Part shown: positions 29,262-29,425 of the stretch, piece after piece
Layout of the letters: the number at the start of each line of letters is the position of its first letter
How positions within the stretch are numbered: position 1 is the first letter of the stretch
From: Peduovirus P22H1
Sequence record: NC_049386.1
Direction: 5' to 3' (one strand)
DNA length: 32,662 nucleotides
Notes under the pieces: model-generated
Told to the model about the DNA's origin: nothing
Database searches by the model: none
The model's input: the letters and a program-made list of their open reading frames with translations, nothing else
Made by a program: the position numbers and the translations under genes

Positions 29262-29425
29262 CCCTGCCAGCGACAAGAGTCACAGGATCAGGCGGTATGG
29301 CGTATGGGTATTCGAACCCTTTGGGCGACCAAGGGTTCGTGGAGCAGGGGGCTAGTGCTGTTCAATCTCATCCTTATGAGGGCGAACCATAGTGTTGGAG
29401 CAGACATATCGTTTGCACACTATGG
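29262..29425 (+). ncRNA. Candidate structured non-coding RNA (possible retron msr-msd-like element); tentative
   Basis: GC-richer segment in an AT-rich intergenic region with nested inverted repeats: CCCCTGC (29261-29267) pairs with GCAGGGG (29344-29350); an 11-bp bulged stem at 29313-29339; a perfect 9-bp stem CCATAGTGT/ACACTATGG at 29387-29425. Confidence 0.35.

Follow-up and report, generated by a model that had tools for sequence, protein, structure and literature searches.

The window analyzed here is the 32,662-nucleotide (nt) sequence NC_049386.1 of Peduovirus P22H1, a P2-like prophage. The open reading frame (ORF) at 26695-29025 encodes the replication protein gpA (gene A; Pfam Phage_GPA, 6.9e-123). 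Downstream of it lie, in order, an AT-rich stretch, a GC-rich segment, an ORF of 51 amino acids (aa), a gene for a helix-turn-helix (HTH) protein, and a reverse transcriptase (RT) gene, followed on the opposite strand by an FRG-domain gene. The retron formed by this module occupies the variable locus that follows gene A in P2-like prophages, and in homologous Escherichia coli loci a phage portal gene is found a few kilobases beyond it. An earlier note, based on the letters of the sequence, had flagged the GC-rich segment at 29262-29425 as a candidate noncoding RNA of the retron. We find that this segment is the central part of a structured RNA of ~450 nt, which we consider, with a probability of roughly 85%, to be the hybrid RNA (hyRNA) of a type VI retron, that is, one RNA that holds both the template that is reverse transcribed and the hidden ribosome-binding site (RBS) of a toxin. 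The anatomy presented below rests on sequence, homology, and covariation, while function is transferred from a Vibrio parahaemolyticus locus and from the published Retron-Vpa2 and Retron-Sen3.

The type VI module and its relatives

The RT matches the PADLOC profile RT_VI over 278 of its 279 positions (E = 1e-105), with RT_III-A as the runner-up (5e-45). Because the HTH_VI and RT_VI scores lie far above those for other retron types, we assign the module to type VI. Consistent with the classification of Mestre et al. 2020, it combines an RT of the type VI clade, a Cro/C1-type HTH protein adjoining the RT, and a small-protein (SP) gene 5' of the HTH gene. The SP had no match in Pfam, PADLOC, or NCBIfam, but 40 loci carry, at the equivalent position, an ORF of 46 to 55 aa whose pattern is conserved, and by analogy with studied type VI systems (Zhang 2025, Garcia-Rodriguez 2026) the SP would be the toxin. 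The HTH and RT reading frames share 35 nt (29920-29954), as they do in the RefSeq annotation of homologous loci, which suggests that the two are translationally coupled. Public annotation of the module region consists of three coding sequences and no RNA.

A homology search with the RT returned 660 relatives, mostly of 316 aa. The 1.9-kb module is present in 100 of 5426 complete E. coli genomes (~2%), always on the chromosome; 60 of these copies are at least 99% identical, 28 are 80 to 90% identical, and 12 are 60 to 80% identical. Relatives of the module at 80% occur in Klebsiella P2-like phages. The closest relatives are enterobacterial, with the RT 71% and the SP ~70% identical to those of a Yersinia enterocolitica locus; on the basis of the latter value the SP is tentatively placed in cluster cl2075. 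A further type VI retron was seen in E. coli C5 (NZ_CP010122.1, 2216496-2221836; locus coordinates 2451-4190) at a nonprophage site beside yeiP, flanked by DUF4236 and by fragments of a YkgJ gene. That locus resembles the window closely enough for a megablast match in the RNA and at the beginning of the small ORF only (74.9% over 337 nt), which indicates that the RNA is more conserved than the proteins.

To collect homologues of the RNA, loci were gathered from reference genomes, viral contigs, exact-protein look-ups, and E. coli genomes, and nhmmer was iterated. The entire region 5' of the HTH gene is conserved at the nucleotide level, in bacteria that range from Enterobacterales to Vibrio, Aeromonas, Shewanella, Marinomonas, Alcanivorax, Legionellaceae, and others. 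A leave-clade-out profile built from 19 distant homologues gave a single match in the 32.7-kb window, at 29178-29659 on the plus strand (E = 2e-67). A Vpa2-like locus from V. parahaemolyticus, hereafter L128, found the window RNA even as the sole query (E = 9e-18), and the alignment runs end to end. The L128 SP residues K15, I39, F43, and F45 and HTH residue R7 are those mutated in Retron-Vpa2 (Zhang et al.); judged by its sequence, L128 is probably that retron.

Covarying structure of the RNA

The structure was derived by three approaches that agree: an all-against-all scan for covarying column runs, RNAalifold, and explicit pair counting on alignments of 34 and, later, 48 homologues. In the set of 34, the 76 pairs of the whole model are 87.0% paired, versus 75.4% in shuffled alignments, and double-change cells number 337 versus 106 (0/500 shuffles as high); when partners are slid by one column, pairing falls to 47 to 50%. 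The set of 48 sequences gives 89.9% versus 75.2% paired and 393 versus 130 double-change cells, again with none of 500 shuffles as high. RNAalifold independently recovers helices P2, H3, B, C, and D and the riboregulator hairpin. Since some G-U pairs are invariant (for example, GU in 34/34 homologues at the base of P2), the RNA is fixed to the plus strand. Coordinates of all features are collected in Table 1.

Table 1. Features of the retron locus (window coordinates; percentages are pairing retained among homologues)
Feature	Position	Strand	Basis and remarks
Promoter of retron RNA	29138..29166	+	weak -35 ATCAAA 29138-43; extended -10 TG 29158-59; -10 TATGAT 29161-66; alignment of homologues
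Predicted hyRNA (noncoding 5' part, SP ORF, 3' return strand)	29173..~29616	+	nhmmer, fold energy; ends inferred
Helix A (GAGAU/AUCUC)	29187-91:29365-69	+	95% paired in 48 sequences; AU27/GC20 and UA26/GC18 at two pairs
5' motif UCGCC, 5' strand of helix M	29195..29199	+	complementary to both GGCGA repeats
Hairpin P1 (UGGGU/ACCCG)	29206-10:29217-21	+	98% paired; double changes at 3/5 pairs
Hairpin P2 (GGAAAGU/GCUUUCU)	29223-29:29234-40	+	97% paired; double changes at 5/7 pairs; also by RNAalifold
Long hairpin, conserved base and hypervariable interior; candidate msd	29247..29310	+	basal pairs 29247-51:29306-10, 29253-56:29300-03
Hairpin H3	29313-21:29331-39	+	8/9 pairs with double changes; loop carries repeat 1, GGGCGAC, 29323-29
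a1-like strand	29340..29351	+	GGGGG 29347-51 is the helix B 5' strand; UGGAGC 29340-45 can extend helix B
Helix B	29347-51:29604-08	+	90-96% paired; AU13/GC12-24/GU8-9 at one pair
Helix C (5' strand UGCUGUUC)	29356-63:29466-73	+	97-98.5% paired; 8/8 pairs with double changes
Anti-Shine-Dalgarno UCCUUAUG	29371..29378	+	8-bp pairing with CAUAAGGA 29427-34
Repeat 2, GGGCGAA, internal loop of riboregulator arm	29380..29386	+	29381-85 is the helix M 3' strand
Apical hairpin of riboregulator arm	29387-95:29417-25; inner 29400-04:29412-16	+	80-94% paired, covarying
Shine-Dalgarno region of small ORF CAUAAGGAG	29427..29435	+	paired with anti-Shine-Dalgarno
SP ORF, 51 aa, candidate toxic effector	29442..29597	+	Shine-Dalgarno AAGGAG; homologous ORFs
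Helix D	29474-79:29598-603	+	93% paired; 5-6/6 pairs covarying
3' return strand	29598..29616	+	helix D 3' strand UGCGUC 29598-603; helix B 3' strand CUCCC 29604-08; then UAGUUUCA
HTH gene, 106 aa	29634..29954	+	PADLOC HTH_VI 7e-30; start per RefSeq annotation of homologous loci
Retron RT, 316 aa, YVDD	29920..30870	+	PADLOC RT_VI 1e-105; Pfam RVT_1

Much of what had been noticed in the flagged segment holds. It is GC enriched (0.51 to 0.63 over 29200-29399 versus 0.21 to 0.27 over 29000-29199), and the two hairpins named there both show compensatory changes across 34 to 48 homologues, one of the checks that had been proposed. The bulged hairpin at 29313-29339, our H3, has 9 perfect base pairs, or 11 with a bulge in the minimum free energy (MFE) fold, and compensatory changes were counted at 8 of the 9 pairs in the 34 homologues. 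The 9-bp stem with a 21-nt loop pairs perfectly and covaries, and its loop holds an inner 5-bp stem that covaries likewise. This second hairpin had been considered as part of an msr-msd, but it is instead the apex of a riboregulator arm whose base is the helix between the Shine-Dalgarno (SD) region and an anti-SD strand. The boundaries also had to be moved, as the interval omits both the 51-aa ORF and the 5' third of the RNA (29173-29261), which contributes the 5' half of the msd-like hairpin and the 5' strands of two long-range helices, besides holding two covarying hairpins. Comparison of fold energy with shuffled sequences, likewise proposed, gave a split result: the exact interval is only modestly more stable (z = -2.15, with 5/200 shuffles as good), while z is -4.57 for 29150-29450 and -5.18 for 29174-29620 (MFE, -159.2 kcal/mol), and the structure is thus stronger over the larger unit. 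A tRNA/tmRNA scan returned none.

The long hairpin is the candidate template of a DNA stem-loop (msd). Its region folds as a single hairpin in all 34 homologues, with lengths of 54 to 119 nt and unrelated interiors, so that sequence varies while shape is kept, as is characteristic of canonical msd regions; the basal pairs are kept in 72 to 77% of cases in an alignment that is not structure-aware. In the window it aligns with the stem-loop region of L128. Zhang et al. mapped the 63-nt multicopy single-stranded DNA (msDNA) of Vpa2 to the stem-loop region, according to the preprint text (10.1101/2025.10.22.683967), and given the probable identity of L128 with Vpa2, the long hairpin and H3 would correspond to the published stem-loops. 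H3 is predicted to give the 5'-terminal stem-loop of the msDNA.

Immediately 3' of H3, the RNA departs from a compact design. Helices B, C, and D, which are 90 to 98% paired with compensatory changes, form a three-way junction that encloses the small ORF, as described for Vpa2: three arms leave a central node, and the 3' end is paired back beside the msd. A canonical msr-msd has a1/a2 repeats at the ends of a noncoding unit, whereas the a1-like strand here pairs beyond an embedded ORF. By analogy, the joining of 29347-51 to 29604-08, ~250 nt downstream, may provide a duplex of the priming type; the extension of helix B by 29340-45 was seen in the MFE fold only. A G follows helix B at a distance of 1 to 3 nt in 41 of 48 homologues; in the window this is G29611 (CUCCC-UAG, within UAGUUUCA), a candidate branch point by comparison with canonical retrons. 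Two competing pairings were rejected. The 5'-3' closing helix GAGAU:GUUUC (29187-91:29611-15) drawn by RNAalifold shows one-sided changes only and is all-wobble in distant lineages, whereas helix A, which uses the same 5' strand, is truly compensatory. A local hairpin at 29583-29608, in which GGGGG (29583-87; codons of the SP C-terminal E-G-G) pairs with CCUCC of the helix B 3' strand (-10.4 kcal/mol) and is followed by UAGUUUCAAU, is missing as an alternative to helix B from several lineages that keep helix B.

Two of these helices reach into the coding sequence. The SP ORF contains the 3' strand of helix C (codons 9 to 11) and the 5' strand of helix D; the former corresponds to the codons for a conserved E/D-Q-Q of the SP, and the third position of the first of these codons covaries with the noncoding strand. 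Because the E-Q-Q-A-Q codons (29466-29479) double as helix C and D strands, part of the conservation of this motif may reflect RNA pairing. Upstream of the ORF, the anti-SD:SD duplex is present in 34/34 homologues although the sequences differ by lineage: cognate pairs average -11.3 kcal/mol versus -7.8 kcal/mol for noncognate pairs, and 0 of 2000 permutations were as good. The RBS of the SP is therefore held in a stem, as in known hyRNAs.

The promoter was placed by comparative alignment, with TAnnnT at the aligned -10 position in 34/34 homologues. The -35 box is TTGACA-like in distant homologues and weak in enterobacterial ones, including the window, which have the extended -10 TG. A simple consensus scan of the window missed this promoter because of the weak -35 box, and it found no terminator at the RNA 3' end. 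From the sequence, transcription is predicted to start near 29173, which leaves most of the AT-rich 29060-29150, previously proposed to hold the promoter, upstream; the promoter itself lies at the 3' edge of that stretch and just past it. The conservation of the retron RNA is not shared by the AT-rich stretch (29013-29132), which begins at the gpA stop codon, has a GC content of ~0.21, and contains many imperfect inverted repeats (e.g., 29014-21/29022-29 and 29081-100/29113-32); it may be a junction left by insertion of the cargo, a gpA terminator, or an UP element. The RNA 3' end is inferred to lie shortly past helix B. In many distant homologues helix B is followed by a run of 6 to 7 U, which suggests that termination may define this end, with transcription reading on into HTH-RT; published type VI RNAs stop before or at the HTH ribosome-binding site, as given in the texts of both preprints (10.1101/2025.10.22.683967; 10.64898/2026.04.27.721009).

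The loops covary as well. GGCGA is invariant or nearly so at 29324-28 in the H3 loop and at 29381-85 in the internal loop that separates the anti-SD helix from the apical hairpin, and the enclosing repeats 1 and 2 (6/7 identical) match the 7-nt direct repeat that hyRNAs carry in the msd loop and the riboregulator loop. The two loops contain an identical 5-mer in 44/48 homologues, and they change together: six Alcanivorax-like loci have GGUGA in both, the Vpa2-like locus has GACGA, and one other has UGCGA. Covariation as direct repeats makes sense only if one loop is copied into its complement, and it lends comparative support to a model in which a DNA copy of one loop anneals to the other. An exact 8-nt direct repeat, TGGAGCAG (29340-47 and 29396-403), was rejected as the counterpart of the published 7-nt repeat: outside close relatives in E. 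coli the second copy is lost, while GGGCGA is invariant in both loops. The first copy of TGGAGCAG is the a1-like strand by helix B, and the second, in the loop of the riboregulator hairpin, may be due to chance or may be a lineage-specific decoy for the 3' return strand.

Both loops are complementary to the 5' motif, which is itself almost invariant. Its pairing with the riboregulator loop, helix M (29195-99:29381-85), is kept in 92.5%, with compensatory GC40/AU6 at one pair plus UA in the Vpa2-like locus. The motif tracks the loops (UCACC with GGUGA, UCGUC with GACGA), and in homologues whose loops differ, it fits the riboregulator loop. If the H3 loop is copied into DNA, the product (GTCGCCC) reads the same as this RNA motif. 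The texts of the two type VI preprints, figures aside, give two direct repeats and do not mention a third, complementary partner, and the covarying 5' motif is possibly a new observation. As only 3 nt link the 5' strands of A and M, geometric reasoning indicates that A, M, and the anti-SD:SD helix cannot all stack together; an H-type pseudoknot of A and M would require an unpaired anti-SD. Tentatively, we suggest that M and A form such a pseudoknot bracketing the anti-SD, that msDNA and the RNA 5' end compete for one site, and that reverse transcription displaces an internal RNA lock in a three-state switch; we regard this as an idea with about one chance in three.

Proposed mechanism and rival explanations

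If the locus works as its studied relatives do, the RT, primed at the 29347-51:29604-08 duplex, would use H3 and the long hairpin as the template for a single-stranded DNA of ~90 to 100 nt, from 29346/29339 back to 29247. The HTH protein would restrain reverse transcription, the toxin, or both, until infection, through phage recombination proteins or RecBCD inhibition, lets DNA accumulate. The 5' hairpin loop of the DNA, the complement of GGGCGAC, could then anneal to GGGCGAA beside the anti-SD, the RBS would be freed, and the small protein, acting as a toxin, would be translated and arrest growth of the infected cell. By analogy, we give even odds to a translational switch of the Vpa2 type at this locus. 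A mode like that of Sen3, with constitutive DNA and toxin and the HTH protein as a posttranslational antitoxin, is somewhat less probable on the same kind of reasoning. It is nevertheless a serious alternative, since Yersinia and Serratia supply the closest relatives of the RT and SP, presumably members of the cl2075 (Sen3) lineage.

Several points weigh against the hyRNA reading or its functional part. An Rfam search of 28500-32662 at E ≤ 10 gave no match within 29100-29650, and the G past helix B is absent in 7/48 homologues. Helices B and C and the anti-SD:SD helix are crossed by both A and M; because no single nested fold can hold them all, the RNA would be pseudoknotted or fold-switching. 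The RT of L128 reads YVDD where the paper writes YADD, which leaves the identity of L128 with Vpa2 probable, not proven. Functional claims for this locus are all transferred from relatives, and the RTs of the relatives that supply them are only 54 to 71% identical. Apart from Sen3, the type VI retrons tested so far lack detectable msDNA at rest, according to the Sen3 preprint (10.64898/2026.04.27.721009). Finally, Vpa2 and Sen3 differ in mechanism, so analogy does not fix the regulatory mode here.

The type VI hyRNA has to be set against other accounts. One follows the earlier note: a compact canonical msr-msd within ~29262-29425, with CCCCTGC (29261-67) and GCAGGGG (29344-50) as a1/a2 and the two hairpins as msr and msd. 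The repeats are indeed complementary, and the interval folds somewhat better than shuffles do, but the closing stem appears in no MFE fold, and on the 34-homologue alignment its pairing stays at shuffle level (75.8% versus 75.6%; 261/500 shuffles equal or higher; double-change cells, 3 versus 5.4 expected). The GGGGG run of its 3' arm belongs instead to covarying helix B. Moreover, the conserved unit extends from 29178 to 29659, and the 3' hairpin is part of the anti-SD:SD arm. This account is very unlikely; what survives of it is a structured retron RNA on the plus strand upstream of the RT, while its anatomy, namely, a self-contained msr-msd with those boundaries and that closing stem, does not. 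That the RNA is a purely translational, cis-regulatory 5' untranslated region of the small ORF, never a template, deserves more thought, as the anti-SD:SD pairing is its most universal feature, most type VI retrons lack msDNA at rest, and the HTH-SP toxin-antitoxin pair of Sen3 functions without the RT or the noncoding RNA, as the preprint texts have it. A hypervariable long hairpin on a conserved base, however, is a hallmark of an msd with no obvious role in a leader, and in every locus examined the RNA accompanies a retron RT. Vpa2 msDNA, per the published text, maps to the long and 5' stem-loops, and L128, probably Vpa2, aligns there with the window long hairpin and H3; the direct-repeat covariation of the H3 and riboregulator loops would also go unexplained. 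On balance a leader without template function is improbable.

A coding origin of the signal is harder still to sustain. The frame of the small ORF is open for 91 codons 5' of its ATG in the window, giving a possible 130-aa ORF (29205-29597, TTG start) of which RNA structure might be a by-product. In most homologues, however, an in-frame stop lies 0 to 30 codons 5' of the ATG, the hairpin varies in length (54 to 119 nt) without keeping to multiples of three, RNA pairs show compensatory substitutions, and the 51-aa ORF is all that RefSeq and gene callers annotate; we give this explanation practically no weight. Nor does the position directly 3' of gene A, behind an AT-rich palindromic stretch, make a convincing case for some other prophage feature with no relation to the retron, for instance a gene A terminator or regulatory region or a P2 recombination or packaging site. 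The RNA occurs with SP-HTH-RT outside P2-like prophages, in E. coli C5 by yeiP and at chromosomal sites in Vibrio, Aliivibrio, and Dickeya whose flanks have no called phage genes. Conversely, P2-like prophages with other cargo at the locus lack the RNA, in keeping with its presence in only 100 of 5426 E. coli genomes, and we consider such an element extremely unlikely.

Downstream of and convergent with the retron, the FRG-domain gene (30979-32343, minus strand) encodes a protein of 454 aa that matches its Pfam family (2.4e-21) and, over residues 168 to 451, the PADLOC candidate defence family PDC-S15 (7e-98); its N-terminal 170 residues are without a match. Given its place in the P2 variable locus, it may be a second defence gene.

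Type VI retrons are anti-phage systems, and as a group they were long without a known template RNA; the two members studied differ in mechanism. The locus described here is a natural E. coli member on a P2-like prophage, for which coordinates now span the promoter, template, priming duplex, anti-SD, loop repeats, and 5' motif, so that the site of DNA priming and the switching of toxin translation become directly testable in the native host. The covariation set adds independent comparative support, with loops that change together in three lineages, for the published but unproven annealing of the msDNA loop to the riboregulator loop.

Comparison with known systems

The hyRNA architecture, template plus hidden toxin RBS, was first described in preprints from 2025-26. 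The hyRNA of Retron-Vpa2 from V. parahaemolyticus is described in the preprint text as a structure whose three arms radiate from a central node and whose 3' end folds back to anneal with the first arm "like a1/a2," with a sequestered SP RBS and a 7-nt direct repeat in the msd and riboregulator loops (10.1101/2025.10.22.683967). According to the same text, its msDNA of 63 or 86 nt accumulates on triggering only, the HTH protein represses reverse transcription, and SP translation needs msDNA (10.1101/2025.10.22.683967). The window shares the gene order (RNA, SP, HTH, RT), and L128 aligns over the whole RNA; three arms, a 3' end returning beside the msd, a hidden RBS, and a short direct repeat in both loops agree with what the published text describes. 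In contrast, RT identity is only 54%, the interior of the msd hairpin is unrelated, the repeat is GGGCGA(C/A) rather than the GGACGAA of L128, and the SP has 51 aa rather than 55 aa and a different C terminus. The window locus also differs in lying on a P2-like prophage and in being known from sequence alone.

For Retron-Sen3, of cl2075, the preprint reports constitutive DNA and toxin, an HTH protein that serves as the antitoxin, and DNAs of 112 and 145 nt (10.64898/2026.04.27.721009). The cl2075 noncoding RNA is described there as a long stem-loop with a variable center, an RBS in a stem, IR1-IR2 pairing across the SP gene, and a structured SP coding region, and Mestre-578, a retron of Y. enterocolitica, is assigned to cl2075 (10.64898/2026.04.27.721009). 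The RNA in the window likewise has a long stem-loop with a nonconserved center and an RBS in a stem; the IR1-IR2 pairing past the SP stop codon is the equivalent of helix B, and the covariation within the SP coding region is that of helices C and D. In the text of that paper IR1-IR2 is without significant covariation, whereas in our wider set helix B alternates among AU, GC, and GU. The template predicted here (~90 to 100 nt) is also shorter than the 112- and 145-nt DNAs reported for Sen3.

Canonical retrons such as Retron-Eco1 (Ec86) share with the window a structured RNA by the RT, a variable msd hairpin, and a duplex that abuts the 3' side of the template, with a G near its end. In the canonical case the a2 strand and branching G are at the 5' end of a noncoding RNA unit of ~150 to 250 nt. 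The a1 partner in the window, unlike theirs, lies ~250 nt downstream past the toxin ORF, so that the order is template, a1, ORF, a2. The published type VI case differs in logic, too, as its DNA turns the toxin on rather than holding it off. A parallel for that step is found in toehold-type riboregulators and in type I toxin mRNAs such as hok, in which an anti-SD helix and long-range mRNA pairing block translation of a small toxin. They have in common with the window RNA an intramolecular anti-SD block and a short complementary nucleic acid proposed to open a loop, but the trigger proposed here is DNA reverse transcribed from the RNA itself, not antisense RNA or RNA processing. The element is a new and so far unstudied example of a kind described only lately, or possibly Retron-Eco12, which was published without a sequence. 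By every testable feature it belongs to the hybrid RNA family of type VI retrons and is not a canonical, self-contained msr-msd.

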